A DNA stretch of 35,100 nt from Klebsiella phage 3LV2017. Location of the stretch: the sequence record KY271397.1. One strand, 5' to 3'. The notes beneath the pieces were generated by a model. That model was not told the DNA's origin, ran no database searches, and saw nothing but the letters and a program-made list of their open reading frames with translations. Both the position numbers and the translations under genes were made by a program. Of the stretch, positions 9,891-35,079 are shown piece after piece (positions within the stretch are counted from its first letter, which is position 1; each line of letters begins with the position of its first letter).

Positions 9891-9923
9891 AAGTTTCCCT
9901 TTCAAACAAATTGTTAAAGAGCA

Positions 9924-14205: not shown

Positions 14206-14229
14206 TATCCATAACGAGAGAACCCGCAC

Positions 14230-15279: not shown

Positions 15280-15326
15280 TCACGCACAGGGCGGGCCACG
15301 GCCCGCTGTTATTCGGGGATGAGTCA

Positions 15327-16247: not shown

Positions 16248-16349
16248 CCGACTTGCGCCCCGTGCGCTGGCGGCGCGGGCGGAGATCTGCAACGCATTGC
16301 GTTTACTTTTCTCCGTCCGCTCACCGCCACCTATTCAGGAGACGACGCG

Positions 16350-18862: not shown

Positions 18863-19500
18863 GCAATAACGACGCACTTTTCAGCCAGCTTGACGAGGTA
18901 TTTGCAGCCATCCTGTCGGGCATATCCCCGGCAGGGCGGCAGCGTACCGCCCGCAGCGTCGGCACGATGTTGCGCCGGAGTCAAAGCCAGCGCATCGGCA
19001 GACAGGAAGCGCCGGACGGGTCGAAGTTCCCGACCCGCCGTCGCCGCGTGCTGCGCTCGCAGGCCGGGATCAGTTTTGTCTGGCAGGGTGAAAACCGTCG
19101 CTTGCGTAACTGGCGGGCCACTCGCGGCCGCCATGGTCGCATGCTGACCGGATTTGACGAAGAACGTGGCGCGGTTCGCTCATTCTATCGCGAAGACATT
19201 GAACGGTATCTCGATATCAATTTTAACGAAACGCGCCGCAACACCACAAAAGCGGATCCGATGTTCCGCCGCCTGCGTACCGCTCGCTTTCTCAAAGCGA
19301 ACGCCACGCCTGAAGGCGCGGAAGTAGGCTTTTCCGGCGTGGCCGCACGTATCGCCCGCGTCCATCAATTCGGCCTGCGTGACAAAGTCAACAGCAGCGG
19401 CGCAATGGCGACCTATCCCCGCCGCGAGCTGCTGGGCCTGAGTAAGGCTGACCGCATGGCGATAGCTCGCCAGGTGATCGACTCGCTGGGGGTGCGCTGA
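18859..19500 (+). CDS. S: Tail completion protein gpS (213 aa)
   Basis: ATGA overlap with the R stop. Position as in P2. Confidence 0.8.
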   Translation: MSNNDALFSQLDEVFAAILSGISPAGRQRTARSVGTMLRRSQSQRIGRQEAPDGSKFPTRRRRVLRSQAGISFVWQGENRRLRNWRATRGRHGRMLTGFDEERGAVRSFYREDIERYLDINFNETRRNTTKADPMFRRLRTARFLKANATPEGAEVGFSGVAARIARVHQFGLRDKVNSSGAMATYPRRELLGLSKADRMAIARQVIDSLGVR

Positions 19501-20084
19501 TGGAAATTGCCGAGCTGATTCGCCTGCTGGAGAACGTCGCTCGTACCGGTACGGTGACGGAGATCGACGAGGAAAAATGGCGCGTTCGCGTGCAAAGCGG
19601 CGGACTAAGCCCCAACTGGATGCGCTGGACTGCGCAGCGCGCCGGGGCGTTTAAAGTCTGGGTGCCGCCATCCATCGGCGAGCAGGTCTGGTTCCTGTGC
19701 CTGGGCGGTAATACCGACGTCGCGTTTATCGGCGGGAGCCTGTACAGCGACGACAACCCGGCACCGGGCGCATCGCGTAATGAGATGGTGGTGACGGCGC
19801 CGGACGGTGCGACGTTCCGCTATGACGCGGAGGTGGGCGCATTGCAGGTGAAGGGTATTAAATCTGCCGTGGTTGAGGCGTCAGTCAAAATCACGCTGGA
19901 CACGCCGGAGGTGGACTGCACCAACCTGTTGCGCGCGAAAAATCTGGATATTTCCGAGGGTGGGGAGATGCGCGGCAATTTTAATCACACCGGCGGAGCG
20001 TTCAAGTCTAACGGCGTGCAGGTGGATGATCACGGTCACGGCGAGGTTGAGCGCGGTGGCGACTGGACGGTGGGCACAAAATGA
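19500..20084 (+). CDS. V: Baseplate spike protein gpV (194 aa)
   Basis: Position and size as in P2 (211 aa). Overlaps the S stop. Confidence 0.85.
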   Translation: MEIAELIRLLENVARTGTVTEIDEEKWRVRVQSGGLSPNWMRWTAQRAGAFKVWVPPSIGEQVWFLCLGGNTDVAFIGGSLYSDDNPAPGASRNEMVVTAPDGATFRYDAEVGALQVKGIKSAVVEASVKITLDTPEVDCTNLLRAKNLDISEGGEMRGNFNHTGGAFKSNGVQVDDHGHGEVERGGDWTVGTK

Positions 20085-20446
20085 CAGAACGCTATCGCGG
20101 TATGAATGCTGCAGGTACTGGCACCCTGACCGACGAGGATCATGTGTGGCAGTCAGTTAACGACATTCTGCTGACGCCGGTCGGAAGTCGCCTGATGCGC
20201 AGAAATTACGGCTCACTGTGCCCTGATCTTATCGACAGCCCGCAAAACGACGTCACACGGCTGCAACTGATGAGCGCAGCAGTCATCGCACTGGCCGCAT
20301 GGGAGCCGCGCATTGTGCTGGAGACCATCACCGTGACTTATTCAGCCAGCGGTGCGGTGACTGCCGCACTGTCCGGCATGCTGACGGAAACCATGGAAAA
20401 AAGCACCCGCGTGGTGACATTAAGGGGCGCCAATGCCAACGATTGA
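20081..20446 (+). CDS. W: Baseplate wedge protein gpW (gp25-like, 121 aa)
   Basis: Position and size as in P2 (115 aa). Confidence 0.85.
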   Translation: MTERYRGMNAAGTGTLTDEDHVWQSVNDILLTPVGSRLMRRNYGSLCPDLIDSPQNDVTRLQLMSAAVIALAAWEPRIVLETITVTYSASGAVTAALSGMLTETMEKSTRVVTLRGANAND

Positions 20447-21332
20447 CCTCTCACAGCTACCGAAACCGACCATTATCGAAGAACTCGACTTCGAGACGAT
20501 CCTGGTTGACGTCAAAGCGCTGATGGTGGCGGTATTTCCTGCTGATCAGCAGTCAGCCGTTGCCGCTGCGCTGGGTCTTGAGTCAGAGCCACTAAACATC
20601 ATCGCCCAGGCGATGGCGTACCGCGAGCTACTGTTACGTCAGCGCATCAACGAGGCGGTGGCGGCCTGCATGCTCAGTCATTCGACTGGCGACGATCTGG
20701 ACAATATTACGGCCAACCTGGACACAGAGCGCCTCACCATTACGTCGGCGACAGACACTACCGACGCAGTGACGGAAAGCGACGAAGCATTACGCCTGCG
20801 TGCGCAGGCGGCCTTTGAGGGGATGAGCGTCGCCGGGCCATCGGCGGCATATGAATATTTCGCGCGCAGTGCCAGCGGAAAGGTGGCGGATGTTAAAGCA
20901 TCCAGCCCGGCACCGGCGGAGGTGGTCATTGCCGTACTGTCTACAGAGGGTGACGGCACCGCATCGCCGGAGTTGCTGGCCGACGTCGCAGAAGCGGTAA
21001 ACGATGAGGAAGCGCGCCCCCTGGGGGATCGGGTCACGGTGCGCAGCGCCGAGATCGTCGATTACGAAATTAACGCCACGCTCTATCTGTACCCGGGGCC
21101 GGAGTCAGAGCCGATCATCAACGCCGCCGACGCATCACTGCAAAAATTCCTGAAACAGAACAACAAAAAAATCAGTCGCGACGTCGCGCGCTCCGCTATT
21201 TCGGCGGCGCTGCATGTCCAGGGGGTGCAGCGAGTGGTAATTAATTCGCCCGCGAACGATATCAAGATCAGCGACGTCCAGGCCGCCCGCAATATCGGTT
21301 ATCACCTGGAAAACGGCGGAACGGATGAATAG
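20433..21332 (+). CDS. J: Baseplate protein gpJ (299 aa)
   Basis: Position and size as in P2 (302 aa). Confidence 0.85.
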   Translation: MPTIDLSQLPKPTIIEELDFETILVDVKALMVAVFPADQQSAVAAALGLESEPLNIIAQAMAYRELLLRQRINEAVAACMLSHSTGDDLDNITANLDTERLTITSATDTTDAVTESDEALRLRAQAAFEGMSVAGPSAAYEYFARSASGKVADVKASSPAPAEVVIAVLSTEGDGTASPELLADVAEAVNDEEARPLGDRVTVRSAEIVDYEINATLYLYPGPESEPIINAADASLQKFLKQNNKKISRDVARSAISAALHVQGVQRVVINSPANDIKISDVQAARNIGYHLENGGTDE

Positions 21333-21927
21333 CACGTTACTGCCGCCGTCCTCCACTGCATGGATGCGCAGCACAGAGGCTGCCACGGCGAGGCTTTCCG
21401 GGATAACCGTCGCGATACGTACGCTATGGACGCCGACCGCCTGCCCGGTGGATTTGCTGCCGTATCTGGCATGGGCGCTGTCTGTCGATCGATGGGATAA
21501 GGACTGGCCGGCGGAGCGAAAAATAGCTGTTATACAGCGTTCGTACTGGCTGCACCGCCGTAAAGGCACCCGCGCAGCGGTGCGGCGCGTGATCGAGGAC
21601 ATGGGGTTCTCTGCCACGTTCGCCGAGTGGTTCGACGTCGGAGACCAGCCGGGAACCTTCCGGCTTGAGGTGGATGTTAACGAGATTGGACTGACGCCAA
21701 AAACGCTGGATGAATTAAACCGCCTGATTGGTGACGCAAAACCGGTCAGCCGCCATCTGGCGCAAATGACGATTGCCGTAAGCTCCAGAGGGGAAGCCTG
21801 GATCGGGGTGGCCGCTTGCGACGGGGAAGTTATAACGGTTTATCCGCCGGGGTATAAACCGGACGACAGTATTTATTACGACGGCATGACTTATTTTGAC
21901 GCTAATTATCGATATACGGAAAAATAA
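21325..21927 (+). CDS. I: Baseplate protein gpI (200 aa)
   Basis: Position as in P2 (176 aa). Confidence 0.8.
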   Translation: MNSTLLPPSSTAWMRSTEAATARLSGITVAIRTLWTPTACPVDLLPYLAWALSVDRWDKDWPAERKIAVIQRSYWLHRRKGTRAAVRRVIEDMGFSATFAEWFDVGDQPGTFRLEVDVNEIGLTPKTLDELNRLIGDAKPVSRHLAQMTIAVSSRGEAWIGVAACDGEVITVYPPGYKPDDSIYYDGMTYFDANYRYTEK

Positions 21928-21928
21928 A

Positions 21929-24208
21929 ATGACAAACATCAATGAAAGTATGCGCTGGGATGATGCGATCCCCATGATTATGCGTGGTGATAAGGTTGAA
22001 GGCGGACGCGCAGCAAAACCAAATTTGCAGGCAGGTGTATTAGCGAACCGTACACAATACTTGCGCAGCGAGCTTGAAAAATATTCGGGAACTCTACAGG
22101 CGGGTGAGCAACCATATTCCAGCGAGGAAGATGCGCAGCAGGCGATCAATAATGGAATGATAGCGGCTGGCGCTAAATTTTCGGTCCGTTCTCATGAGTC
22201 AGGTTCATGGGTGGATGAATATAAAAATGTTGACGGCATCGCCACGCCAACCGGCAAGAAACTGCCATCACTGGCGGCGGTAACAACATTGCAGGAAATG
22301 CTGTCCGAGAAATCATCGGAGCTAATGTTATTTCTTTTTTCTGATATGGATGATTTCCATATTGCTGATATTTCATTTGACGAAGAGACCGGAAAGCCGA
22401 AATTTAATATCGGACGAATGGCATTAAAGCGTAGTCAGGGGGCCGTATTTGAAGTAGTTGATTCTGACGGCTTTGGTATTTCTGGCGATGATATGATAAA
22501 TCGCCTTCGTTCGCTTGAGTCAGGGCGATATATTTATAATGGACTGAAAATTACACGCAGTGAAAATAATATATTAGAAGTGACTGACCCGGACGGATTT
22601 TCGCTTTCCATTGATGACATGCTGTCACGTCTGATGAGCATTGAAAAAGGCTCATTTAATTACAGCGGACAAAGTTTACAGAGAAGCCCTGACCATATTT
22701 TTGAGATTAAAGACCCTGACGGATTCGCATTAACGGCGGAAAGGCTGATTGAGCGCATTACCGCGCTGGAAAAGGCGACTGGTGACAGCGGTGACGTCTC
22801 GCGTAGTGGCGAAATTATTGCTCATATGGAAGGGGAGGCACAGGCAGCGCGAGCTGCTGCGACGGAGTGGGTTAGTCCGCCGGTTGCTCCGCTACGTAAA
22901 GGGCTGAATCTGTTTTTTATCTACGGGCAGTCGCTGGCTATCGGCGATGAAGCGTTTTCAGTCGTCACACGTCAGCCATCGCAGCTTGGAAACCTTATGC
23001 TGGGGAAATCACCTCGTGGCAGGTATTACGGGAGAACTAGCGACGCTGACTTTGGTGTTATTGGCGGCGAGAATATCTATTACCCTCTGACTGAGCACAG
23101 ACAAGATGGTCCAAATATTATTACAGATCCAGATATAAACACCCGCCTCGGTGAGACTGTCGCATCTGGTTTTATGGAAACCCTCAAGACTCTGCATAAC
23201 CGCTCGAAGGGGGTGAAAAACGATGAAGAAACAATCCTTGCCTGTTCCGTAACGGGATGCTCTGGCACCAATATTGCCACCCTGTTAAAAGGTGCTGGCG
23301 CGGCCACGCCATACTATGAACGCCTTATGTCGGCTTTACGCGGGCACATGGAAGCGGCGGCGAAAATGGGGATTACCGATGTACAGGTGTGCGGGATGCT
23401 GTTCCTCCAGGGAGAGAATGATTATGGCATCACAAACCGTGAAAATTACCTGAACATGCTGAATCAGCTGATTAATGATTTTAATGCTGATGCAAGAGCG
23501 ATAACCGGTCAGACGGATAATATCGGATTTTATCTGTATCAGACTGGGGGAACCTATGTCAGCCAGGCAGAGGGCAACACCCTGCCGATTGATATGGCTC
23601 AACTGGATATCACGTCACGCGTCGATGCCTTTATGGCCGCTCCCATGTTTCCGTATCCGCAGGCGTCAAATAATCGCACTCATAAGGCAGCAAACAGTTA
23701 TCGATGGTGGGGATGTGCGGCAGCGAATACTGTTTTTCGCGTGCTGAGTAATGAAAACAGAACGCCATTTCGCATGATAAAAGCGGTTTATGATGGCGAG
23801 GATATTTATGTTTCATTTATGACGCCCTGTCCGCCGCTGGCGACGCAGCCATATTACCGGATTGCCGCGGCGGTAATGAATACCGACATGGGATTTACTG
23901 TCATTGATGGCACAGGGAATCTGTATGGAACATCACTGGTGACGGAAATTATCTCCCCGTGCGTGATTAAAATATCACCACCAAGAAAGCTGAGCGGAAA
24001 TATCCGCCTCAATCTCGGCGACCAGCTTCATGGCGGAGGGCATAACGTTGCAGACTCCAGCCCTCAGCAGTCTTTTTTTAACTGGCAATATTACGGCGAT
24101 GATAATCAGTCAGTGAATGAAAATATTGATGCGTTAAACGATAAACCTTATCCGCTGTATAACTTCGCGGCGATTCAGACAATTAATGTTGATGGAGTGG
24201 AATTATGA
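21929..24208 (+). CDS. Tailspike-like protein (759 aa) with three tandem ~42-aa repeats and a C-terminal SGNH/SASA-type carbohydrate esterase domain
   Basis: Repeats at 22442-22816 (…FE[VI].D.DGF…RL.S[IL]E.G…). SGNH block I GQSL (Ser codon 22931-22933), block III GEND (23411-23422) and block V DQLH (24020-24031). The region looks AT-richer. ATG 21929 lies 1 nt after the I stop. Confidence 0.75.
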   Translation: MTNINESMRWDDAIPMIMRGDKVEGGRAAKPNLQAGVLANRTQYLRSELEKYSGTLQAGEQPYSSEEDAQQAINNGMIAAGAKFSVRSHESGSWVDEYKNVDGIATPTGKKLPSLAAVTTLQEMLSEKSSELMLFLFSDMDDFHIADISFDEETGKPKFNIGRMALKRSQGAVFEVVDSDGFGISGDDMINRLRSLESGRYIYNGLKITRSENNILEVTDPDGFSLSIDDMLSRLMSIEKGSFNYSGQSLQRSPDHIFEIKDPDGFALTAERLIERITALEKATGDSGDVSRSGEIIAHMEGEAQAARAAATEWVSPPVAPLRKGLNLFFIYGQSLAIGDEAFSVVTRQPSQLGNLMLGKSPRGRYYGRTSDADFGVIGGENIYYPLTEHRQDGPNIITDPDINTRLGETVASGFMETLKTLHNRSKGVKNDEETILACSVTGCSGTNIATLLKGAGAATPYYERLMSALRGHMEAAAKMGITDVQVCGMLFLQGENDYGITNRENYLNMLNQLINDFNADARAITGQTDNIGFYLYQTGGTYVSQAEGNTLPIDMAQLDITSRVDAFMAAPMFPYPQASNNRTHKAANSYRWWGCAAANTVFRVLSNENRTPFRMIKAVYDGEDIYVSFMTPCPPLATQPYYRIAAAVMNTDMGFTVIDGTGNLYGTSLVTEIISPCVIKISPPRKLSGNIRLNLGDQLHGGGHNVADSSPQQSFFNWQYYGDDNQSVNENIDALNDKPYPLYNFAAIQTINVDGVEL

Positions 24209-25008
24209 TTAATACCCGTTCAGGAACCCGTATTGCCGTCAGTGACACATCTATTCAGGATGGTGTTGACCGGGTTTATCCTCCAGTGCTGGTTGGTCTG
24301 GAGCAGGCGTTATTTTTTACCGCCGGTGGTGACGGAAAAAACTATGCACCAGACGGCGTTGTTCTGCCAACAATTACGGGAACCCCAACGCAAAATGCGT
24401 ATAGCAAGTCGTTCCCGACAATAAACGACTGCATTGATACCGGACTGGTAGACAATACCGATTACACGGTGCTGATTGTAAATAAGCCAACGGCGATGCC
24501 GCAAGGGAAGACATTCAGGCCATTTTTTGGGAACTGGAATGCTCAGACCGTTGAGCCTGGAAAAGGAGGCGGTCTGGGGAGTGCAATGGTGCAGGGTGCT
24601 AGCCAGCAACTTTCGCTGGTTATATCCTCCGTGCCGGTTGCTGATGCATCGAACCCGAACGCGGCTACCAGTATCAAGGAAAACGTTGATATCTTCGGGA
24701 TGGGATATAACGACGGGACATGGCGCTTTAGTGCGCTGCGTATTACAAGCGGTGAGTATTATTTTAAAGACTTCACAAAAGGAGTTACTAAAGAATCAAC
24801 GCCATTAACTGATGGATGCGTTAAAGACAATCGCCGGTTAACTCCACTGCGCGTCTGCGGGCAATACGGCCAGAGCGCGTCAGCCTGTGCTCCGGGTCCG
24901 GAAACCGCGCTTTGCCTTTTTTATCGTCGCGGGTTAAGCACTGACGAAATGGAAACCATGTACGCCTGGGCAAAAAAATACTGCGCACGTCGTGGGATGA
25001 TTATCTAA
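24205..25008 (+). CDS. Hypothetical tail-fibre-module protein, 267 aa
   Basis: ATGA overlap with the tailspike stop. AT-richer composition. No recognisable motif. Confidence 0.6.
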   Translation: MINTRSGTRIAVSDTSIQDGVDRVYPPVLVGLEQALFFTAGGDGKNYAPDGVVLPTITGTPTQNAYSKSFPTINDCIDTGLVDNTDYTVLIVNKPTAMPQGKTFRPFFGNWNAQTVEPGKGGGLGSAMVQGASQQLSLVISSVPVADASNPNAATSIKENVDIFGMGYNDGTWRFSALRITSGEYYFKDFTKGVTKESTPLTDGCVKDNRRLTPLRVCGQYGQSASACAPGPETALCLFYRRGLSTDEMETMYAWAKKYCARRGMII

Positions 25009-25023
25009 CCGGGTGATACGGCT

Positions 25024-26166
25024 ATGAATAAATACCGGGCAATACTGACTGAGGCGGGATTAAATAAACTGGCAGCAGCAACGCTGACGGGGGAGCCGGC
25101 AGGCTTCTCCAGTATGGGCGTTGGTGATGGCGGCGGAACGTTATACCAGCCCCACCCCAGGCAGACCGGCCTGATTAATGAGCTGTACCGCGCCCCGCTT
25201 AACAGGCTGGTTATCGCCGACCAGGGGGCAAATATTATCCGGGCAGAAATGGTGATGCTTCCCCAGGTCGGTGGCTTCTGGCTGCGCGAAGCTGCGCTCT
25301 ATGACGATGAGGGCGTGTGTCTTGCGGTGGCTAATTTGCCGGAATCCTATAAGCCACTTCTGGCCGAGGGGTCAGGCCGCCTGCAATCGGTAAATCTGTG
25401 GATAGCCGTCAGTAATACGGCAGATGTAGAGCTGAAAGCCGATCCTTCGGTAATTATGGCGACCGTGGAGGAGGTCACTCGCGCAAAAAACGAGGCGAAG
25501 GATTACGCGGATGAACTGATCGAAGGTCTGGAAAAAGACATTGGTCAGGACATGGAAGCCGCGAAGGACTATACCGATAAGGCTGTAAGCGAGCTGGATA
25601 AGAACACCAAAAAGGCCATCGCCGATGCTGTGAAAAAAGCGGTAGGTGACGCATGGGAGCAGGATAACCCTGTCGGCACAACCCGATTTTTCATTCAGAA
25701 CCTCAACCCCAACGAGCGCTGGCCGTGGTCGCAATGGGTTTACACGGGCGAGAATAAAACGATCCGCGTCGGTAAGGCTGACGGTTCGAACGTCGGGCAG
25801 ACCGGCGGTAGCGATAATGTCACGCTGCAGCGGGCTAATCTGCCAGTCGTTAAGATTGATGTGAGCGGCGAAACCAGCGAGTTACCTGCACATGAGCTGA
25901 CAACCAGGGGGGCTGGCAGGCACAAACATCAGGGGGGAATGGCGGCACCGGGTGAGGCATGGGACGGGAATTATATTGTCGGCTCCGATAATGACAGCCA
26001 CCGCACCCGTAATTACACCAGTGAAGATGGCGATCATACCCATGTTATTGACGCCCCGCCCCATAAACACAGCACCAGTGGCAAAACCGATAATCTCGGC
26101 GAGGGTAAATCGTTTAGCGTAATTGAAGCCCACACCCTGCTGATGTGCTGGTCGCGGGTGGCGTGA
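25024..26166 (+). CDS. H: Short tail fibre, gpH-like (380 aa): conserved H N-terminal domain plus a C-terminal His-rich (HxH) tip
   Basis: N-terminal ~130 aa parallel P2 H (…LAAAT…GDGGG…QTGLI…LYDDEG…AVANLPESYKPLLAEGSG…SVIMAT). The C-terminus has RHKHQGG / DHTHVID / PHKHSTSG motifs. No gpG-like chaperone gene follows. Confidence 0.75.
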   Translation: MNKYRAILTEAGLNKLAAATLTGEPAGFSSMGVGDGGGTLYQPHPRQTGLINELYRAPLNRLVIADQGANIIRAEMVMLPQVGGFWLREAALYDDEGVCLAVANLPESYKPLLAEGSGRLQSVNLWIAVSNTADVELKADPSVIMATVEEVTRAKNEAKDYADELIEGLEKDIGQDMEAAKDYTDKAVSELDKNTKKAIADAVKKAVGDAWEQDNPVGTTRFFIQNLNPNERWPWSQWVYTGENKTIRVGKADGSNVGQTGGSDNVTLQRANLPVVKIDVSGETSELPAHELTTRGAGRHKHQGGMAAPGEAWDGNYIVGSDNDSHRTRNYTSEDGDHTHVIDAPPHKHSTSGKTDNLGEGKSFSVIEAHTLLMCWSRVA

Positions 26167-26258
26167 GTATCGAGTACCGTCAAAATCAACAGTGCTGCAG
26201 TATGGTCAGAAGTGGCGGTGCGGTACCACCATAGTCAGAAATGGCGATATCTGCCGGT

Positions 26259-26289
26259 AGTGAAAGCCCCTTACTGAAGGGGCTTTTTT
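26259..26289 (+). terminator. Rho-independent terminator after the H-like gene (AGCCCCTT-ACTG-AAGGGGCT + T6), convergent with the end of the minus-strand tail operon
   Basis: 8-bp stem 26265-26272 pairs with 26277-26284, followed by TTTTTTG. The U stop at 26295 abuts it from the other side. Confidence 0.7.
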
Positions 26290-26294
26290 GTGGA

Positions 26295-26783
26295 TTAAAA
26301 CAGGCTCTTGATAGAAGTTGAAACAGAGTTAACCGCTTTTGTCGCGCTGGACTTCAGATCATCCAGCACATCACTGACAGACGACGTCTGTAGCTTCTCG
26401 CGAAAATCACCATCGGCGCGCGAAAGACTGATCGTAAACTCAATTTTTTTCGGGTTGCCGTAGCGGTCAAACTCCGTTTTTCCTCGCTCCAGCTGCGTCA
26501 TGAGGTACATCCCGTAAATCTGCCCGTCACCCTCAATCAGCGGCCAGGGGCGACCGGCAAAACCGATCGTCTCCAGCGCCGACAGCGACCACCGGCCGCC
26601 GGTGATTTCCGGGTAAAGCACGCCGTCGAGCGTGATTGTGTCGTCACCGGGGCCGATGTACTGCCAGGCCGCCGACTGGTTAACCCGGTCATTTTTAACG
26701 TGCCGCCACGCCTGGGAGTGTCGCAGCTGCTGATACGGCGCAGTGCGCAGCGTAAAAACAAACATCCCGTAAATCATCATCAT
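26295..26783 (-). CDS. U: Tail protein gpU (162 aa)
   Basis: Sequence parallels P2 gpU (MM..G.FVF.L.T.P.QQL.R...WRH…IEFT/Q). Strong SD AAGGAGG. Minus strand. Confidence 0.8.
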   Translation of the reverse strand: MMMIYGMFVFTLRTAPYQQLRHSQAWRHVKNDRVNQSAAWQYIGPGDDTITLDGVLYPEITGGRWSLSALETIGFAGRPWPLIEGDGQIYGMYLMTQLERGKTEFDRYGNPKKIEFTISLSRADGDFREKLQTSSVSDVLDDLKSSATKAVNSVSTSIKSLF

Positions 26784-26794
26784 AAAAAACCTCC

Positions 26795-29734
26795 TTACTC
26801 CCGATCGCGGAATGAACCACGGTTAGTTTTGCGGGTGCTGGCCATTGCATCGCGCACGGCGTTACGCACCATTTTTTCCAGCTCCTGATCCGAGCGTTTA
26901 CCGACGTCGTTAAAGACCAACTGGAAGAACGGCGCAGCACCAGACGACGCGGCGACCGGCGCAGACGTTGCCCCCTGCGTCGCCGTCGGCACCGACAGAA
27001 TGCCGCCGGCCGCAGCGGCGGACACACGCGGTACAGGCTGCGGAATAACACGCGCTTCCTGAAAGGGACCACGCAGCGCCAGCGCGCGCGGCAGGTTTTT
27101 AAAGACAATATCCCCGGGGCCGATTTTCTTTGTGTTATTCGCCGTCGCTTTTGTGTTATCCGCGATGTTGTTCAGGCGCCGAAGAGTGCCATTGTCGCCG
27201 GTAATAACCGGCGGCTTGCCGCCGCCAGCACCGGACACGGTGGCCTGACCAAGTGGCAACTGATGACCGGCCAGCGCGGCTGCTGATGCCTCCAGCGCAC
27301 TCTGTGCCTTATCGGCTTGCTGCCTGGCTCTTTCGATACCGTCGGGAATAAGATCCAGTTTTTCAAGCAACCAGCTGACGCCGTTCATTAACTGCTGGAG
27401 CGGCCATAACAGAACACTAAGCGCGGCACCCATTACACGCCCAAAGGTTTCACCCGCCGACGCACACTTATCCAGCGCGTCTTTACTAGTCTGCATCGGG
27501 GTCAGCAGGTTTTTGAACCACTCCCATACAGCCTTGATACCATTACCCAGCGCGGAGAAAACAGGCGCCAGTGCAGAAAAAGCAGCTCTGACAGGTGTTA
27601 ACGCCTGCCACACACCAGTAAAGAAACCAGAGAAAAAGGCTTTGATAGGCTCCCAATAGCGCCAGATGAGCAGCCCCGCCGCAACAAACGCCGCACCAAT
27701 TAGCCCGATCGGACTTAACAGGAAAGACAGTGCGCCACCCAGCACAGATACCGCACCGGTAATCATCCCCCACAACGCAGGGAGGCCGGTAAGCCTGAGC
27801 ATCAGCATGGCAAGGTTTTTACCCAGGGAGGTTAACGCAGCACCGGGCGCCAGAAACGCACCCATTAACCCAGCCCGAATCGCGGGCATGATGGCGGAAA
27901 TCCTCCCAAAACCGGATGCGATACCAGTTATAACGACGGGCCAGCCGCGCATGCTTGCCATCACCGGGCCAGCGGCAGTACCCAGGGTGCGGAATACGGC
28001 AATGGTGCCGAGAATGCCGCGACCACCGGTTAGCACCGCGAAGCCGAGTTGTAGTTTTGCCAGCGGCCCAATCAGAATACCGACAGCAAGCGAGAGAGCG
28101 CCAACAGCAACTGTCAGCGCCAGCGCGCCACCCGCAACAAGGAGGAGGGTTTGTGCAAGGCGCGGATTGGCTTTTACCCATTCACTCGCAGCTGTGATCG
28201 CATCACTTAAACCTTGTGTTAATTTGCGAAGAGGGCCATCAACGGTCTCTTCAATCTGAATGCGAAATCCCTCCCATGCGCTGTCGAGGTTTTTCAGATC
28301 GCCACTCAGGTTGTCAGCCATTTTTTTAGCGACAGCAGACGCCTCACCCCCTGCGCCTTTTAGCTCCCTTACGAGCTTCTGCAGTTCTCCACTTCCCGCA
28401 CCTGCAACCAGTGTTTGCAGCCCAACAAAAGCCTCTTCCCCGGCAATGTCTTTAAAGAATCCAACCTGATCAACTTGTCCGTATTTTTTAGTTGCCTTGT
28501 AGAGGTCGAGAAGAATAGTTTCAACTGGTCGCATTTTACCCCTGGCATCCGATACTGATACGCCAAGCTGTTTTAATGCTTTTGCCGCTCCGGCTGTAGG
28601 GGATGCAAGGCGAGCCAATGAAGCTCGCATAGCTGTGCCAGCATCGCTACCGCGAAGCCCGTTGTTAGCCAGAATACCCGCCATCCCGGCAGCCTCTTCA
28701 AGGCTGATACCCAACTTTGACGCCACGGGACCGGCGTATTTCATCGTGTCGCCAAGACTTCGCAGGTCAGTGTTGGTGCGGGTAAATGCAGCCGTCAGCA
28801 CGTCACTGACACGATCCATTTCACCGGCAGGGAGGGTAAATTGAGAAAGGATGTTTGATCCAATATCGGCACTTTCGCCCAGCTCCATCCCACCGGCCAG
28901 CGCCATATTCAGCACGCCAGGTAATGCCGCCTGGATTGATTGTGGAGTGAAGCCAGCCATTGCAAGGAACGCCTGACCACTTGCGGCGTCGCGGGTGGTA
29001 AATGCCGTTTCCGCGCCGAGCTTTTTCGCCTGCGCACGCAATGCCGCAAGTTGAGAGTCACCTTTATCAAGTCGTGTCAGTGCCTGAACGCGCGACATTT
29101 CCTCATCAAAGCCAACGGCAGGGGCCAGGAAGCGCCCGCCCGCATATCCGGCAGCGCCCGCGCCAGCAATTGCCATCGTGCCACCGCCGCGAAGTTTCGA
29201 GCCGGTTTCCTTCGCCCTCTCATAACTGGCCTGCGCGCGCGTGACTGCGGCCAGGCGCTGCCGTTCACGCTCAAGCGCCTGGCTGTATTGCTCTGTTCGC
29301 CGAATGGCCGACTGCACCGCACCGCTACCAGCATTGAGGTTAACGCCATGCTGGCGCACCGCTTGTCCGGCTGCACGTAGTTGGGTGGTCTGTTTGTTAT
29401 AGGTGTCTGTCAGGCGCGAGAGCTTATTCCGCAGCGTTTCAAGCCGCGCCGTCTGCGCCTCGGTAAGCTGCCCGCCTTCGCGCTGCTTCTGATTGAGACC
29501 ATCAAAGGCACGTTGGGTGCTTCTGAGTTTTTGCGCGGTATCGTTGGCCTGTGAGCGCAGCTTGTCGAAAGACGACGCGCTTTTTTCCAGGTCTTTGATT
29601 GAAGACTGTGTTTTTTTGAGGGAGTCAGAAAGGCCGCCAATAGCTTTACTGGCGGCGCTGACCGGGCGGGTAAGCTTGTCAATTGCACTGAACGCAACGC
29701 GAATACTAAGATCCATCGTCATCCTCCTGTTCAT
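26795..29734 (-). CDS. T: Tail tape-measure protein gpT (979 aa)
   Basis: Long Ala/Gly-rich protein with multiple TM-like segments in its central part, following E/E' as in P2. Minus strand. Confidence 0.85.
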   Translation of the reverse strand: MNRRMTMDLSIRVAFSAIDKLTRPVSAASKAIGGLSDSLKKTQSSIKDLEKSASSFDKLRSQANDTAQKLRSTQRAFDGLNQKQREGGQLTEAQTARLETLRNKLSRLTDTYNKQTTQLRAAGQAVRQHGVNLNAGSGAVQSAIRRTEQYSQALERERQRLAAVTRAQASYERAKETGSKLRGGGTMAIAGAGAAGYAGGRFLAPAVGFDEEMSRVQALTRLDKGDSQLAALRAQAKKLGAETAFTTRDAASGQAFLAMAGFTPQSIQAALPGVLNMALAGGMELGESADIGSNILSQFTLPAGEMDRVSDVLTAAFTRTNTDLRSLGDTMKYAGPVASKLGISLEEAAGMAGILANNGLRGSDAGTAMRASLARLASPTAGAAKALKQLGVSVSDARGKMRPVETILLDLYKATKKYGQVDQVGFFKDIAGEEAFVGLQTLVAGAGSGELQKLVRELKGAGGEASAVAKKMADNLSGDLKNLDSAWEGFRIQIEETVDGPLRKLTQGLSDAITAASEWVKANPRLAQTLLLVAGGALALTVAVGALSLAVGILIGPLAKLQLGFAVLTGGRGILGTIAVFRTLGTAAGPVMASMRGWPVVITGIASGFGRISAIMPAIRAGLMGAFLAPGAALTSLGKNLAMLMLRLTGLPALWGMITGAVSVLGGALSFLLSPIGLIGAAFVAAGLLIWRYWEPIKAFFSGFFTGVWQALTPVRAAFSALAPVFSALGNGIKAVWEWFKNLLTPMQTSKDALDKCASAGETFGRVMGAALSVLLWPLQQLMNGVSWLLEKLDLIPDGIERARQQADKAQSALEASAAALAGHQLPLGQATVSGAGGGKPPVITGDNGTLRRLNNIADNTKATANNTKKIGPGDIVFKNLPRALALRGPFQEARVIPQPVPRVSAAAAGGILSVPTATQGATSAPVAASSGAAPFFQLVFNDVGKRSDQELEKMVRNAVRDAMASTRKTNRGSFRDRE

Positions 29735-30175
29735 GGTTGCCGCTTCTGATGGCCGCCCTCTCGCGCCAGGCCATCAGCTCGCGCAGCTCCATGCCGTACA
29801 TCTCGGAGGGCGGCCAGTGAAAAATAACTGCAACGTCGGCGATAAGATCGTCGACGTCAGGAAATGCCGGCTCTCTTATTCGCTCTCCGTCTCCGCCGAA
29901 ATCGGTGCGGATGGCGCCGGCTTCGCCAAAAAAGGCGTGATCTCTTCACAGAGCGCAGTGAAGTCACCTGTAGCCAGCGCGGCAATTTCGGCGTTGGTCA
30001 GCTGCGGACTGGTGGTGCGCGTCAGCAGGGTGGAAACCGCATCAAAATCGAAGTTCAGCACATCAACAAGACGCAGTCCGCGCAGCGATCCAGCCTGTTT
30101 GATGGTGTCAGTGATAGTGATGGTGATAATTTCCTGATCGCCGCGCTTGACCGGCTTACTGAGAATAACGGACAT
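29706..30175 (-). CDS. E': gpE+E' -1 programmed-frameshift fusion (about 156 aa); slippery heptamer TTTTTTG at 29927-29933 (minus sense); E' ends at 29706, overlapping the T start
   Basis: In the E zero frame the heptamer reads T TTT TTG (X XXY YYZ). The -1 frame stays open for 73 codons to a TAG at 29706-29708, exactly spanning the E-T gap, as in P2 E/E'. Confidence 0.7.
29876..30175 (-). CDS. E: Tail assembly chaperone gpE (99 aa)
   Basis: Position between FII and T, matching size, and the slippery site near its 3' end. Confidence 0.85.
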   Translation of the reverse strand: MSVILSKPVKRGDQEIITITITDTIKQAGSLRGLRLVDVLNFDFDAVSTLLTRTTSPQLTNAEIAALATGDFTALCEEITPFLAKPAPSAPISAETESE

Positions 30176-30229
30176 AACAGTTTCTCCGGGCGGCCCGCAG
30201 GCCGCCTTAAAGGTGAGTTAAACGGGTTA

Positions 30230-30745
30230 TCAGCTGCCGAGGCCAAGCGCTGACATAATGCGATCTGGGTAGAGATTCCGCCCGTTACGCTTGTAGATAA
30301 AGTTCAGCAGGTCGATTTCCAGCAATGGCTTATCGTCCACCGACTCTTTGTAGTAAGTGTTTTTGATGGCGTAGGTGTGGTTGGTGTCATCACCCTGTTT
30401 TGCATCGCCAGGATCAATCTCAGTGATGCGCCCGCGCATCTCTACCTCCAGTAGTGAACTGGTGCCACCACTGTAAATCTCTCCCACAAAGCGCAGGCGT
30501 AATTCGTCGATATCACCGCCGTATTTCAGGATTAACTCTTCGACCACGCCGCCGACAATCATCGACGCGTCCAGCGCGCCGGAATCCAGGCCCAGATCTA
30601 CCGCCACCGAGCCGACCATGCCGCCGCCCTGATAATCCTCAGTCTTGCGGGTCAACTTCGGCAGCGTGACGCTCGGCACTTTCCCGATGAAGTTTTCGCC
30701 GTCAACAAAGAGGGTAAACAGTCGGAGTTTTTTAGGAATAGCCAC
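30230..30745 (-). CDS. FII: Tail tube protein gpFII (171 aa), GTG start overlapping the FI stop
   Basis: Size and position as P2 FII (172 aa). SD GGGGG lies 7 nt upstream of GTG (plus 30743-30745). Confidence 0.85.
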   Translation of the reverse strand: MAIPKKLRLFTLFVDGENFIGKVPSVTLPKLTRKTEDYQGGGMVGSVAVDLGLDSGALDASMIVGGVVEELILKYGGDIDELRLRFVGEIYSGGTSSLLEVEMRGRITEIDPGDAKQGDDTNHTYAIKNTYYKESVDDKPLLEIDLLNFIYKRNGRNLYPDRIMSALGLGS

Positions 30746-31926
30746 TATTCACCCCCAAGCGATGCAAAAGCGGGTTCGTAATACTGATCGGTGAACGTCT
30801 GGATCATCGTCAGGTCTTCCAGCGGCGGTACCGGGCTGTAGTTGTAGCGCACGATGGCTTTACCCTGACGAATGCCCGTTACCGGGTTATCAACGACGTC
30901 ATACCAGGTCGCCGCGCCAATCAGCTTGCCCGCCGTGACCAGCGCCTGTAGTTTGGCGTTGATGCCGCTCACCACGTCTTTCACGTTCGCCGGGGTCAGC
31001 GGGGTGTCCACTGTGGTGAACTGCGCTTCTGCGATACTGTCCGCCAGGATCTGCGCGGTTCGCGTGTACACCTCGAAAATAAATTTTTCTTTATCCGTCA
31101 CGCGGTTACCCCAGAAGCGGAAGCCGTCGCGTTTAATCAGCGTGGTGATTTCGTGGGCGTTCAGCTCGTTCGCGTCGGAGTCCTCCGCCTGCAAAGCCCA
31201 GAACACATCCTTAGAAATCCCCAGCACGTTTTTCACCGGCACGTTAGACAGTGATTTATGCCAGCCCTGCTCGTTATCGATCAGAGCGCGAAGACCCAGC
31301 GCATACGCCACGGCGGGAAACTCTTCATTGTCGCCGGTCGCCGGGTTATAGGCGATGAAGTTCGGCCAGATCAGCATGCCTTCACGCTCTGCAAACGTCT
31401 CGCGATAGGCTTTCGCCTCTGCAATTGTCTCGCAGCCGTGGCAGTAGCTGTATGAGAACGCCCGCAACTGCTTTGCGATAACCCGCAGTTGCGCGGTCAC
31501 TTCGGCAGTGTCGTAATCAGGCACGCCGAGAATGCGTGGCCGGTATCCGGTTTTTTGCTCCGCCGTCAGAAAAGCAAACATGCCGGTATAGCTGCCGTCT
31601 GCCTGCGTGCCACCGATAATCAGTTGTGACTGAGTGGGCTTGTTTTCGCCCGCCTCGGCTTTTGCCACACGCACAACGATCACGCGGGTACTGACCTGGT
31701 CGGAAATAGCTTTCAGCGATTTGTAAAGCGAACCGGTTTTGCCTGCTTTGCCGAGCACGCTGATAACCCGCGTCACAAGCACCGGAGTGTTAAGTGGAAA
31801 GGTGACAGGGTCGGCGTCTTCAGCTACCGCAACCAGACCAATGACCGTTGAATCAATGTCATTGATCGCGGCCTGGAGGTCGGTATCTTCCTTGACGCGC
31901 GCCCCGTGAAAAAAGTTGTCGGTCAT
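30745..31926 (-). CDS. FI: Contractile tail sheath protein gpFI (393 aa)
   Basis: Size and position as P2 FI (396 aa). It is the first gene of the minus-strand block. Confidence 0.9.
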   Translation of the reverse strand: MTDNFFHGARVKEDTDLQAAINDIDSTVIGLVAVAEDADPVTFPLNTPVLVTRVISVLGKAGKTGSLYKSLKAISDQVSTRVIVVRVAKAEAGENKPTQSQLIIGGTQADGSYTGMFAFLTAEQKTGYRPRILGVPDYDTAEVTAQLRVIAKQLRAFSYSYCHGCETIAEAKAYRETFAEREGMLIWPNFIAYNPATGDNEEFPAVAYALGLRALIDNEQGWHKSLSNVPVKNVLGISKDVFWALQAEDSDANELNAHEITTLIKRDGFRFWGNRVTDKEKFIFEVYTRTAQILADSIAEAQFTTVDTPLTPANVKDVVSGINAKLQALVTAGKLIGAATWYDVVDNPVTGIRQGKAIVRYNYSPVPPLEDLTMIQTFTDQYYEPAFASLGGE

Positions 31927-32002
31927 ACTCTACCGCCATCATGTTGAGTGAGTTCGCGGTCATCATCGCCGGACTGGTTGGCCGCTGTCGTGCCATCAGG
32001 GT

Positions 32003-32020
32003 TGTGACCGGCCTGCCACA
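32003..32020. promoter_or_regulatory. Second Ogr-type late-promoter dyad TGT-N12-ACA (TGTGACCGGCCTGCCACA) in the divergent FI/D intergenic region
   Basis: Exact consensus. Its centre is about 55 bp upstream of a plausible FI transcript start (minus) and about 55-70 bp upstream of D (plus). Confidence 0.55.
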
Positions 32021-32079
32021 ACAAAAAGCCATCGCCAGCATCGCGCGCGCATGAAACCATCAGCGGCGGAGGTATGCAC

Positions 32080-33234
32080 ATGGCACTCACGACGGACACT
32101 ATCGACAAAGCAAAAGCGCTACTGAGCGAAGGGGTGCAGCGATTCCAGGATTACCAGTCCGAGCTGTCGAGCGTGCCGGCATTCAGCATCATGATGGGCG
32201 GTAAGGCTCTGACGCAGCTGGATCCCCGCATTATTTCGCTGGAGCTGACCGACAATCGCGGTTTTGAAGCTGACGAACTGACCATTGCTATCGACGACAG
32301 CGACGGATTGATTGAGCTGCCGCCGCGCGGTGCCGAGCTGTCGGTGTCGCTGGGCTGGCAGGGTGAGCCGCTGGTTTACAAAGGGATTTACACTGTCGAC
32401 GAGGTTGCGCATTCAGGTCCGCCGGACAGACTGGAGATCACCGCCCGCAGTGCAGATTTTCGGGACGAGTTCAACGTCAAGCGCGAGGTGTCATGGCATG
32501 ACGTGACAGTTGAGCGCATCGTGTCGGCTATCGCCCGGCGCTACAAGCTGACGCCGGTAATTTCCGAGCAGCTGATGAGCGCTGAGATTGATCACGCCGA
32601 CCAGACCCAGGAAAGCGATATGTCATTTCTGACAAGGATGGCCGATCTGCTGGGGGCTATTGCCACCGTCAAAAACGGTAGCCTCCTGTTTATCCTGCCG
32701 GGTGGTGGCGTCAGCGCGAACGGCAAAGCCCTGCCGGAGTTTGCGATCACCCGATCCAGCGGTGATCGGCATTCGTTCCGTATCGCAGACCGTGACGCCT
32801 ATACCGGCGTGCAGGCGTACTGGCTGGATCTGGAGTTCGGCAAAAAGAAAAAAGTCACCGTTAAAGCCCGCAAGAAAAAAAACGAGAAGAAGCCGCGCAG
32901 CAGCAGCCGGGAAGGGGATTATATCGCGGGCGAAGACGGCAACGTATTTGTGCTGCGGACAACCTACAGCAGCGAGACCGCCGCTCAACGCGCCGCTGCG
33001 GCGAAGTGGCAACAGCTTAAACGCGGTGCTGCCGAATTTAATATGACGCTCGCTTATGGCCGCGCAGATCTGTACCCGGAAATGCACGGCACGGTGTCGG
33101 GCTTTAAAACGGATATTAACAATCAGGACTGGATAATTGCGAAGGCCACACACTCGATCGACGACGGCGGATTTAAAACACAACTGGAGCTTGAAGCGAA
33201 AATACCTGAATGGATTGCAGAAAGTGAGAGTTAA
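32080..33234 (+). CDS. D: Tail protein gpD (384 aa from ATG 32080; an alternative ATG lies at 32074)
   Basis: Size as in P2 D (387 aa). SD GGAGG lies 8 nt upstream of 32080. On the plus strand, unlike the preceding FI-U block. Confidence 0.85.
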   Translation: MALTTDTIDKAKALLSEGVQRFQDYQSELSSVPAFSIMMGGKALTQLDPRIISLELTDNRGFEADELTIAIDDSDGLIELPPRGAELSVSLGWQGEPLVYKGIYTVDEVAHSGPPDRLEITARSADFRDEFNVKREVSWHDVTVERIVSAIARRYKLTPVISEQLMSAEIDHADQTQESDMSFLTRMADLLGAIATVKNGSLLFILPGGGVSANGKALPEFAITRSSGDRHSFRIADRDAYTGVQAYWLDLEFGKKKKVTVKARKKKNEKKPRSSSREGDYIAGEDGNVFVLRTTYSSETAAQRAAAAKWQQLKRGAAEFNMTLAYGRADLYPEMHGTVSGFKTDINNQDWIIAKATHSIDDGGFKTQLELEAKIPEWIAESES

Positions 33235-33279
33235 CGGCCATAATATGAGCGAGTTCAACTCCCAGCCTGGGAGGCCATC

Positions 33280-33528
33280 ATGTTCAAGTGTCCCATTTGC
33301 GGTGCCGTTGCAAAAACGCGCACCAGTCGTCCATTGAGTAACACCACCGTTCGGCATTATCACCAGTGCCAGAACTTTGAGTGCAGCATTACATTTACCA
33401 CCCTGAATAGCGTTGAAAAACTGGTAACAAAGCGTGCGCCGCGTGAGACTCTACCGCCGGGCTTTATCCCCTCTGATGCCTTTCCTGCCTCACACTACGG
33501 TAGCGATCAACTAACCCTCCCAGTTTAA
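33280..33528 (+). CDS. ogr: Late-gene transcriptional activator Ogr (zinc-finger, 82 aa)
   Basis: MFKCPICGA...RHYHQCQNFECSITF parallels P2 Ogr MFHCPLCQHAAHARTSRY…RYHQCQNVNCSATF (Cys4 zinc finger). Confidence 0.9.
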   Translation: MFKCPICGAVAKTRTSRPLSNTTVRHYHQCQNFECSITFTTLNSVEKLVTKRAPRETLPPGFIPSDAFPASHYGSDQLTLPV

Positions 33529-33533: not shown

Positions 33534-33567
33534 CCCCCCCCCCCCCCGCAAACGCGGGGTTTCTTTC
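33534..33567 (+). terminator. ogr terminator: C14 homopolymer (33534-33547) whose last Cs form the stem CCCCGC-AAAC-GCGGGG, followed by TTTCTTTCTTG
   Basis: 6-bp GC stem 33544-33549 pairs with 33554-33559, followed by a T-rich run. Confidence 0.6.
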
Positions 33568-33595
33568 TTGTCAATGAAGAATTATCCGATAAAAT
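33568..33595 (+). promoter_or_regulatory. Sigma70-like promoter for the terminal moron cassette: TTGTCA (33568-33573) - 16 nt - TAAAAT (33590-33595)
   Basis: Near-consensus hexamers with 16-nt spacing, about 50 nt upstream of the first moron gene and immediately after the ogr terminator. Confidence 0.55.
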
Positions 33596-33647
33596 AAAAT
33601 TGTTTGTAACAAATGACAATTAATAAGTAACGATGGGGATGATTGCT

Positions 33648-33980
33648 ATGGCTTTGGTCAGCTGCCCGGAATGCCGGAAAGAAGTGAGCGATTCAGCATT
33701 GAGGTGTCCATCCTGCGGTAAACAATTAAGAAAGCCGCGTCGCTCAATTTTTGGGGTACTAATAAAATGGATCTTCATTTTATTTAACATCTTCATGATC
33801 TACGTCCTTTTTAAAGGGCTAGGCGGAACTGGTGAAGTTATAAGCCATGCTACATCTGAAGCGGAAAGGGCAGGAGCAGCTTTAGGCGCGGGTTTGGGAA
33901 TGATGGCCATTGGTACTATTTGGGTCATCGGCGACATAGTTATTGGAATACTGGTGTTTCTTACTAGACCAAAAGGATGA
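33648..33980 (+). CDS. Zinc-ribbon (CPxC…CPxCG) two-TM inner-membrane protein, 110 aa (in-frame ATGs also at 33633 and 33639)
   Basis: N-terminal CPECRKEVSDSALRCPSCG, then two strongly hydrophobic helices separated by a Gly/Ala-rich loop. AT-rich. GGGGA lies 8 nt upstream of ATG 33648. Confidence 0.65.
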   Translation: MALVSCPECRKEVSDSALRCPSCGKQLRKPRRSIFGVLIKWIFILFNIFMIYVLFKGLGGTGEVISHATSEAERAGAALGAGLGMMAIGTIWVIGDIVIGILVFLTRPKG

Positions 33981-33984
33981 CCCC

Positions 33985-34881
33985 ATGAAGAAAAGTTTTA
34001 TTTTCATTGCGACATTTTTAGCTGCTTCCGTTTCTTTAGCTACTCACGCTCAAGAGGAGTCAAGGGACTTTAAAGGGGTTCTTCAGTGCCGGTCGATTGA
34101 GGATAGCTCGCTGCGTCTTTCTTGTTACGACAATTCAATTCCTCCTTCGCGAACGAAGAGTGCTGAAAAATTTGAAAGTAGAGAGCAATGCCCCGATGAA
34201 AAAACGGACGAGAGACGTCTGACCTGCTATGACAGATTTTTCTCGCCAACTTTCAAACCGGCGAGTTCAGTCAAAAATGCACCTTTAGACGCTGAAGTTG
34301 CTAAAAACGAGGCAATCAGTAAAGAAAAGGTCCATGAGTGCCGCTCAGAATTAAATGGCACCAAGCGATTAGCATGTTATGACAAGCTTTTTCCGCAGGA
34401 TGCAGCAGAAGAGGATGAGCCTGCCGTAGCAGAAGCGACTCCGAACCCCGGAAAATGGCTGACTCATATAACAACATCTCCGGTTGATGATTCAAAAAAC
34501 GTGGTTTTAATGTTACCTAGCAATGATTCCATCAGAACCCCATTTGGCGAAACAGTCACACCAACGATTTTTGTGGCCTGTCGTGAAAAGAAAACTGAAG
34601 TTTTTATTAATTGGGATGTGTACTTAGGACTTGAGGAAACAAGTATGCTTTACCGGCTTGATAAGCAGAAAGCCGTGGAAAGAAGCTGGTCGATTTCTAC
34701 CGACACCAAAGCGGTCTTTTATAGTGGCAGAGATATAGATTTTGTTAAGGCTCTAGCTAAATCTGAAAAGATGTTTGCAAGGATAACCCCCTACAACGAA
34801 AGCCCCGTATCGGTCACATTTGAGTTAACTGGGTTGAACAATGCATTAAAGCCCCTGCAGCAGGCGTGTGGCTGGAAATAG
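33985..34881 (+). CDS. Secreted (Sec signal peptide, cleavage after THA) 298-aa protein with three C-x8/9-RL-x-CYD repeats and a ~170-aa C-terminal domain
   Basis: MKKSFIFIATFLAASVSLATHA signal. Repeats CRSIEDSSLRLSCYD, CPDEKTDERRLTCYD, CRSELNGTKRLACYD. SD AAGGA lies 7 nt upstream and overlaps the previous stop (operon). AT-rich. Confidence 0.7.
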   Translation: MKKSFIFIATFLAASVSLATHAQEESRDFKGVLQCRSIEDSSLRLSCYDNSIPPSRTKSAEKFESREQCPDEKTDERRLTCYDRFFSPTFKPASSVKNAPLDAEVAKNEAISKEKVHECRSELNGTKRLACYDKLFPQDAAEEDEPAVAEATPNPGKWLTHITTSPVDDSKNVVLMLPSNDSIRTPFGETVTPTIFVACREKKTEVFINWDVYLGLEETSMLYRLDKQKAVERSWSISTDTKAVFYSGRDIDFVKALAKSEKMFARITPYNESPVSVTFELTGLNNALKPLQQACGWK

Positions 34882-35056: not shown

Positions 35057-35079
35057 ATAAACCCGGAGCACTCCGGGTT
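35057..35079. repeat. attR: right copy of the direct repeat, here forming the intact host terminator (hairpin + T7)
   Basis: Exact 21-nt identity with 31-51 and followed by TTTTTTT, which would complete the terminator of the host gene at 1-24 if the prophage were excised. Confidence 0.6.

Follow-up and report, generated by a model that had tools for sequence, protein, structure and literature searches.

The reversed FI-to-U tail block of Klebsiella phage 3LV2017 is an inherited gene order of a large group of P2 relatives

Klebsiella phage 3LV2017 (KY271397.1), whose whole 35,100-nt stretch of analysed DNA is referred to here as the window, is a complete P2-like (Peduoviridae) prophage and an ordinary member of the P88/SEN4/KSP20-type clade. 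Its tail genes FI, FII, E/E', T and U (26295-31926) lie on the minus strand, flanked on the plus strand by V-W-J-I-H and the fibre genes and by D-ogr, as established from open reading frames (ORFs) and PHROG matches. In P2, 186, PSP3 and Fels-2, by comparison, FI-FII-E-E'-T-U-D-ogr is co-directional with V-W-J-I-H(-G) in all four maps. An earlier reading of the window from its letters alone (the sequence-only reading) had described this difference correctly and had treated it as a special rearrangement or a possible mis-assembly. That interpretation does not stand, because the same layout was found in 96 of 96 related loci, with FI identities of 56-98%. The inverted block is the inherited gene order of a large and known group of P2 relatives rather than a fresh rearrangement. 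The best overall explanation, to which we assign a probability of about 0.9, is a P88/SEN4/KSP20-type prophage with one ancient, inherited inversion and two divergent control regions, each built around a dyad for the late activator Ogr.

The 96 loci comprise 16 loci from enterobacterial genomes and the 80 best IMG/VR relatives by FI, and they yield 85 distinct spacers between FI and D (the FI-D spacer). In the FI scan of one genome per species, all 16 enterobacterial loci have D and ogr reading leftward, FI-FII-E-T-U reading rightward and V-W-J-I-fibre reading leftward again. These loci come from Klebsiella, Raoultella, Pantoea, Kosakonia, Enterobacter, Serratia, Yokenella, Brenneria, Pectobacterium, Trabulsiella and Chania, with Klebsiella supplying the nearest ones at species level, and the hosts of inverted-layout loci belong to four families of Enterobacterales. 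The same scan returned the canonical order only in two Acinetobacter prophages, whose FI is 47% identical. Among the 80 IMG/VR relatives (FI 56-98%), the layout is inverted in every contig wherever the gene in question is present: D, some 1.3 kb away, and the baseplate genes are read from the strand opposite to FI, and U lies about 5 kb downstream on FI's own strand. A phage collection, in which 534 records are FI-positive, contributed 33 records with FI on the minus and D on the plus strand, their starts about 150-200 bp apart; these records span four ICTV genera, namely Xuanwuvirus (P88), Senquatrovirus (SEN4), Novemvirus and Reipivirus, plus Serratia phage KSP20. All relatives with an FI identity of at least 56% carry the inverted layout, and the canonical order among the phages compared is confined to P2, 186, PSP3, Fels-2, ENT90 and the Acinetobacter prophages, each with an FI identity of at most 52%. 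The earlier statement that relatives are canonical is thus accurate for the four phages it named and fails as a general picture, since that set of relatives was incomplete.

The window lacks the canonical organisation with a single F promoter (pF), in which FI, U and D share one strand and U and D overlap or are coupled. It has the P88/SEN4/KSP20-type layout, in which FI and D are adjacent and divergent and U converges with the fibre genes. The large P2-like clade that shares this orientation includes the published viable phages P88, SEN4/5 and KSP20/PP4. KSP20 is described as a Serratia phage, P88 as one of E. coli and SEN4 as one of Salmonella, and PP4, a KSP20-like prophage in S. marcescens, releases P2-like particles (10.1101/850248). 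Because members of the clade form particles or plaques, the inverted layout is compatible with a viable virus. The gene order itself is already visible in deposited, annotated phage genomes and is therefore not new; in the literature searched, which included papers on P88, SEN4, Burkholderia phage, kosakonicin, Smp131 and PP4, none was found that comments explicitly on the inversion. The Kosakonia loci L006, L007, L008 and L015 also carry the inverted layout. These may correspond to kosakonicin, a P2-derived R-type tailocin cluster (PMC6629978), and if so the layout is present in a headless tailocin as well.

In neighbour-joining trees rooted on an Acinetobacter prophage, the phages with the inverted layout form a single clade for FI, FII and U, and its sister is the canonical clade of P2, 186, PSP3, Fels-2 and ENT90; the D tree gives the same picture except for one divergent sequence. 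Bootstrap values for monophyly of the inverted set, the window included, are 100/100 for FI, 97/100 for FII, 68/100 for U and 51/100 for D. Since the set is monophyletic in FI and FII, the simplest history would be a single ancient inversion of the segment running from pF and FI through U, inherited ever since. The inverted stretch would have lain between the end of the fibre genes and the U/D boundary, with one break a little upstream of the pF activator site and the other where U overlaps D. No breakpoint scar between the two clades was seen when U C-termini and D N-termini were compared, which is uninformative because both termini are variable and of low complexity in all of the phages, including the canonical ones.

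The sequence-only reading had further proposed that D is transcribed apart from FI. The two genes are indeed physically uncoupled by a divergent spacer of 153 bp (31927-32079), while separate Ogr-dependent transcription of D is something that we infer. As had been noted, an Ogr-type dyad is found at this end of the block, with TGT-N12-ACA (32003-32020) embedded in perfect 6-bp arms. TGT-N12-ACA is the consensus of late promoters, and P2 has four late operons (PMC3931495). The consensus alone is not above chance in the window, with four occurrences against six expected, and the dyad is therefore argued from its extended 12-base form and from conservation across species. The 12-base palindrome GTTGTG-N10-CACAAC occurs twice in the 35.1 kb, once in the spacer between P and O (P-O spacer, 13276-13297) and once in the FI-D spacer, and no further copy was found there even with two mismatches allowed. 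The exact TGT-N12-ACA is present in 45 of the 85 distinct spacers of relatives. The distance from the centre of the exact dyad to the FI ATG is 78.5-85.5 nt (80.5-85.5 nt in all but one), and a (CG)n tract starts about 30 nt to the D side of the dyad in most distinct spacers.

An alignment of 88 distinct FI-D spacers was used to measure conservation. The right dyad arm, GACAACAAAAAG, is 80-99% conserved in all 88, and the best-conserved non-coding columns are this arm with AAAAAG, the tract TCGCGCGCGCATGAA and, on the FI side, the ATnATC and TGAGTTC blocks. The predicted core of a leftward FI promoter consists of a -10-like GATGAT (31968 to 31963) and a start region GAACTCAC (31956 to 31949), with columns that are 90-99% conserved. 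Transcription would begin near 31956 and give a leader of about 30 nt. On the other side, the predicted rightward D promoter comprises the tract CGCGCGCGC followed by ATGAAACCAT; the block upstream of D is conserved across relatives, as is its ribosome-binding site, which in the window is GGAGG at 32068-32072. Judged from these elements, D is probably transcribed from near 32062-32068, with a leader of about 13-15 nt and with a single Ogr site shared with the FI promoter. In Ogr-dependent late promoters of the P2 type, whose activation needs Ogr and the alpha subunit of RNA polymerase, the dyad is centred about 55 nt upstream of the start. Such a distance fits FI, with its leader of about 30 nt, and fits D marginally; both starts are predicted.

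The FI-D spacer also has a counterpart within the same genome. Aligned with the reverse complement of the P-O spacer, it scores 30, compared to 15.9 +/- 2.4 for shuffled sequences, none of which reached 30 in 500 trials. The D side and the P side both carry CACAACnAAAAGC-N13-15-CGCGCGCGC, and the FI side and the O side both carry xATxAT-N2-CCG-N-GAACTCA at equal distance from the dyad. On this similarity, the putative D-side promoter resembles the P-side one and the putative FI-side promoter resembles the O-side one. In SEN4, the same (CG)n tract is found on both the P and D sides. Further along the rightward genes, the S stop overlaps the V start (GCTGATGG, 19497-19502), and an intergenic spacer, a dyad and an orf30-like gene are all absent at that position. 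Because of this overlap, a separate pV promoter seems to be absent, unlike in P2 and 186, and the genes from O through the fibre genes may form one transcription unit of about 12.8 kb.

These features suggest a model in which the whole late regulon of the clade is run from two mirror-image bidirectional regions, P-O and FI-D, with one Ogr dyad each; we regard this as an even bet. In this prophage, the P-O region appears to drive P-Q leftward together with one long rightward unit, O...S-V-W-J-I-H-fibres, and the FI-D region appears to drive FI-FII-E/E'-T-U leftward and D(-ogr) rightward. The two long late units would then converge on the hairpin between the fibre gene and U, and the D unit would probably read through ogr to the terminator beyond it. 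Under this model, the ancient inversion turned a unidirectional pF into a second bidirectional unit like that of the P and O promoters (pP and pO), and so would have uncoupled gpD, along with late read-through into ogr, from the sheath/tube operon. No description of a two-dyad, mirror-image architecture of late control was found in the literature searched. What is possibly new may be limited to this architecture and to the Ogr-dependent D promoter that it implies.

Several points weigh against the overall reading. The trees are neighbour-joining trees in which the canonical phages are only sparsely sampled, and support for monophyly is weak for U and D. The J tree is mosaic, with inverted and canonical phages mixed, as expected for P2-like baseplate and fibre genes. 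Several subclades, at FI identities of 72-77% and 68% and including P88, have no exact TGT-N12-ACA, and the site is thus degenerate in them. If D is transcribed from about 55 nt beyond the dyad centre, its leader would begin at the Shine-Dalgarno sequence. The proposed D-side -10 (GAAACC/AACCAT) matches the consensus at only three of six positions.

Among the alternatives to a single ancient inversion, the one that survives best is module replacement, in which a foreign FI-U tail module was captured in the opposite orientation. P2-like genomes are mosaic, as the mixed J tree illustrates, and rearrangements of tail genes have been reported in other P2-like phages such as Smp131. Such a capture is nonetheless unlikely. 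The block genes FI, FII and U agree with D, which lies outside the block, in placing the inverted clade as sister to the canonical enterobacterial clade, and since D shows this same relationship from outside the block, capture of a module is less parsimonious than inversion. Moreover, the dyad of the FI promoter has moved with the block and now lies beside D, as a simple inversion predicts.

It is still less probable that the block is an active, phase-variable segment flipped by an invertase of the Hin/Gin/Cin type, comparable to the fibre segments of Mu, P1, Fels-2 and P88. In favour of this idea is a serine invertase gene that 15 inverted-layout relatives, P88 among them, carry convergent with U and at 35-100 bp from its 3' end, together with a homologous invertase directly upstream of FI in the canonical phages Fels-2 and ENT90. 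Examples of the U-adjacent gene are found in loci L021 (26977-27564), L010, L014, L067 and L083. These positions indicate that the left junction is the usual home of a fibre-inversion system. The window itself, however, has no invertase homologue (tblastn with the P88 invertase, best E = 1.8), and only a single FI-U orientation was observed in 97 loci, the invertase carriers among them. The sequence-only reading had seen no convincing inverted repeats at the junctions, and a search of 25000-33400 bears this out: no repeats run from junction to junction, and the best pairs (18-33 nt, 70-89% identity) are at chance level and all lie inside coding sequence. In both layouts the invertase is located outside the block, and its orientation relative to H is unchanged. 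For the same reason, a fibre-segment invertase is unsupported as the maker of the ancient inversion.

A recent, strain-specific inversion in this prophage has in its favour only the difference from P2, and it is hardly credible given 85-88 distinct FI-D spacers with one architecture across four host families and four phage genera, a bootstrap of 100/100 for monophyly of the inverted set in FI, and the conservation of the D ribosome-binding site and its upstream block. Mis-assembly, in which the block was joined in the wrong orientation in one sequence, is conceivable a priori, since inversions flanked by intergenic DNA can be assembly artefacts and in one record (CP052639.1) the layout is indeed scrambled and the sheath gene split, but it is excluded for practical purposes: the junctions recur in all retrieved relatives and in independently sequenced phages, both junction spacers hold conserved, functional-looking elements, and a protein identical to the window's FI, indexed in 3113 blocks of a public assembly collection, has the same neighbours in the same orientation in six of the six places listed, including the 5.27-5.29 Mb records CP106654.1 and OW849070.1. 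The scrambled record (locus L002, 32 kb, deposited as 'Klebsiella pneumoniae plasmid unnamed') holds a near-identical phage in which the sheath gene is split into two separated pseudogene pieces; rather than a plasmid, the record appears to be a contig that was mis-joined or permuted.

The features of the window are collected in Table 1. The P2-type structural and late gene set Q, P, O, N, M, L, V, W, J, I, H, FI, FII, E/E', T, U and D is present, as are the Ogr/Delta activator, gpA and the int-C-cox switch (Phage_Cox, a helix-turn-helix repressor and the tyrosine integrase), and by tblastn the gene order is collinear with P88, SEN4 and P2. The prophage is bounded at 31-51 and 35059-35079 by the two copies of a direct repeat of 21 bp, AAACCCGGAGCACTCCGGGTT, a sequence that can itself be drawn as a hairpin; the repeat is likely the attL/attR core, giving a prophage of about 35.0 kb. 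No tRNA genes were found in the window. Within the inverted block, U is 43% identical to P2 U, and gpT is 973 amino acids as called in public records, its longest ORF extending to 29734. The E+E' frameshift unit is intact, with a slippery TTTTTTG at 29933 to 29927 on the minus strand and a -1 frame that is open to 29706 and overlaps the T start (29716) by 11 nt. On the right flank, gpD is called as 384 amino acids in public records and is 48% identical to P2 D. Transcription of the D-ogr unit likely ends at the terminator 3' of ogr. Directly downstream of ogr, and abutting the stem of this terminator, is a stretch of 13 C residues (33535-33547), a length prone to slippage or sequencing error.

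Table 1. Features located in the window, with their strand and the basis of each call
Feature	Position	Strand	Basis or remark
Tyrosine integrase	121-1137	-	ORF map, family matches
gpA rolling-circle initiator	5697-8336		PF05840 Phage_GPA; C-type repressor, cox and early genes lie between integrase and gpA
Q and P	10444-13211	-	ORF map, PHROG
O, N, M, L, lysis genes, R, S, V, W, J, I, H and two more fibre-region genes	13372-26166	+	
V/W/J/I/H	19500-24208	+	ORFs, PHROG matches
380-amino-acid tail-fibre/collar-fibre protein; last gene of rightward late operon, left flank of block	25024-26166	+	phrog_4618 E 1e-163
Hairpin terminator between fibre gene and U (spacer 26167-26294)	26262-26287/26289	both	Folding
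gpU tail protein	26295-26783	-	phrog_76 E 5e-67; PF06995 Phage_P2_GpU
gpT tape measure	26795-29716	-	phrog_28 E 3e-180; PF10145
E' extension	29706-29933	-	Frame translations; PF06528 Phage_P2_GpE in identical loci
gpE tail assembly chaperone	29876-30175	-	phrog_103 E 9e-30
gpFII tail tube	30230-30745	-	phrog_55 E 1e-54; PF04985 Phage_tube
gpFI tail sheath	30745-31926	-	phrog_23 E 3e-111; Phage_sheath Pfam domains
Predicted FI promoter core	31949-31968	-	
Ogr/Delta-type activator dyad	32001-32022 (centre 32011.5)		Sequence match, conservation
Predicted D promoter, spacer and -10	32042-32060	+	80-99% conserved in 88 spacers
gpD, baseplate hub / 'late control D'	32080-33234	+	phrog_52 E 2e-155; PF05954
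Ogr-type zinc-finger late activator	33280-33528	+	phrog_603; PF04606 Ogr_Delta
Terminator 3' of ogr	33544-33559/33569	+	

At the convergent end of the block, the terminator that had been proposed between the fibre gene and U was recovered as a hairpin that folds on both strands. It has an 11-bp stem, with a folding energy of -19.1 kcal/mol and a U6 tail on the plus strand and -14.8 kcal/mol and UUU on the minus strand (z about -3 on each). Judged by its tails and energies, the hairpin would terminate the rightward operon well and the leftward operon less effectively. The fibre locus that follows H (24205-26166) contains an ORF of 267 amino acids with no Pfam match and then the 380-amino-acid fibre gene, whose product carries PF12571 Phage_tail_fib where public loci are identical. 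Even among loci that share an identical FI the genes here differ, for instance by a fibre of 432 amino acids with Phage_fiber_2 (compare L111 12761-14356 and L008/L015), and the distance in relatives from U to the nearest match of the window's 380-amino-acid fibre protein ranges from about 0.1 to 4.8 kb. This variation in content and distance marks the convergent junction as a hot spot of variation.

Cargo regions are found elsewhere in the prophage. Between the ogr terminator and attR (33633-34881) there are two cargo genes, encoding a zinc-ribbon protein of 115 amino acids and a VasI domain protein (VasI/EvfG of the type VI secretion system; 312 amino acids in the longest ORF, 298 in public records). 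They are preceded by a sigma-70-like promoter (33568-33595), and a TGT-N12-ACA at 33601-33618 is too near the cargo ATG for a late-promoter site. Where public loci are identical, yccJ and a flavodoxin/WrbA-like gene of the host come next. The early operon includes a Dam-type D12 methyltransferase (3731-4870). The slot between gpA and Q, which in P2 holds tin/old, contains a weak second methyltransferase-like ORF (8361-9014), a leftward helix-turn-helix protein (9167-9541, minus strand) and an ORF of 161 amino acids with no family match (9962-10447, minus strand). The G+C content falls to 43% around 9000-10000, which suggests acquired cargo.

Taken together, these observations indicate that the map regarded as canonical for P2 is not universal, and annotators and prophage callers should not flag the inverted layout as a rearrangement or an assembly error. 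The divergence of FI and D is a simple synapomorphy of a large clade of Enterobacterales Peduoviridae that spans at least four ICTV genera. The clade may also be viewed as a natural experiment in operon inversion, in which a symmetric activator site would have allowed the stranded distal gene D to gain a divergent late promoter. Neither the inverted layout nor the model of its control changes the understanding of P2 biology in a major way.

The nearest known relatives of the window are P88 (Xuanwuvirus, NC_026014), SEN4/SEN5 (Senquatrovirus), Enterobacter phage phiT5282H (Novemvirus) and Klebsiella phage ST16-OXA48phi5.4 (Reipivirus). This P88 group has the same order, int-C-cox...A...Q-P, then O-N-M-L...V-W-J-I-H-fibres, then U-T-E'-E-FII-FI on the opposite strand, and finally D, with FI 59-76% and D 61-73% identical to the window and with FI and D starts that diverge 150-200 bp apart. 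P88 differs in its invertible fibre segment, in the DNA invertase beside U and in the lack of an exact TGT-N12-ACA in its FI-D spacer, whereas the window has two co-directional fibre-region genes and no invertase. KSP20 (AB452988), known only from a partial sequence of 6 kb, and PP4 of S. marcescens share with the window T-E-FII-FI on one strand, D-ogr on the other and a conserved spacer in common, with identities of 87% for FI and 82% for D. The annotated start of the D-like orf2 of KSP20 (L001 3783-5213) is 276 bp too far upstream and overlaps FI; the conserved ATG of this ORF aligns with the window D start at 32080.

The canonical P2 F operon (pF-FI-FII-E-E'-T-U-D-ogr) has in common with the window the internal order from FI to U and the E/E' -1 frameshift on TTTTTTG, and P2, 186, PSP3, Fels-2 and ENT90 also share an activator dyad of the same type, some 85 nt upstream of the FI ATG, and the position of ogr after D. 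In these canonical phages the block reads in the direction of V-W-J-I-H and of D, with the stop of U overlapping the start of D, whereas in the window the block is turned round and D has an independent start at 68.5 nt from the centre of the dyad. P2 D is the last cistron of the F operon, which the P2 record annotates as reading through ogr, and it is translationally coupled to U; the window D, by contrast, has a ribosome-binding site of its own. The closest parallel to the FI-D region in P2 is pP/pO, where one dyad likewise lies midway between two divergent late genes. In the P2 reference record, a single activator site (3057-3087) is annotated for pP (transcription start site 3016, minus strand) and pO (3127, plus strand), about 55 nt to either side. 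The pP/pO sites are thus annotated features of that record, whereas the starts in the FI-D spacer of the window are predicted and the leader of D would be unusually short.

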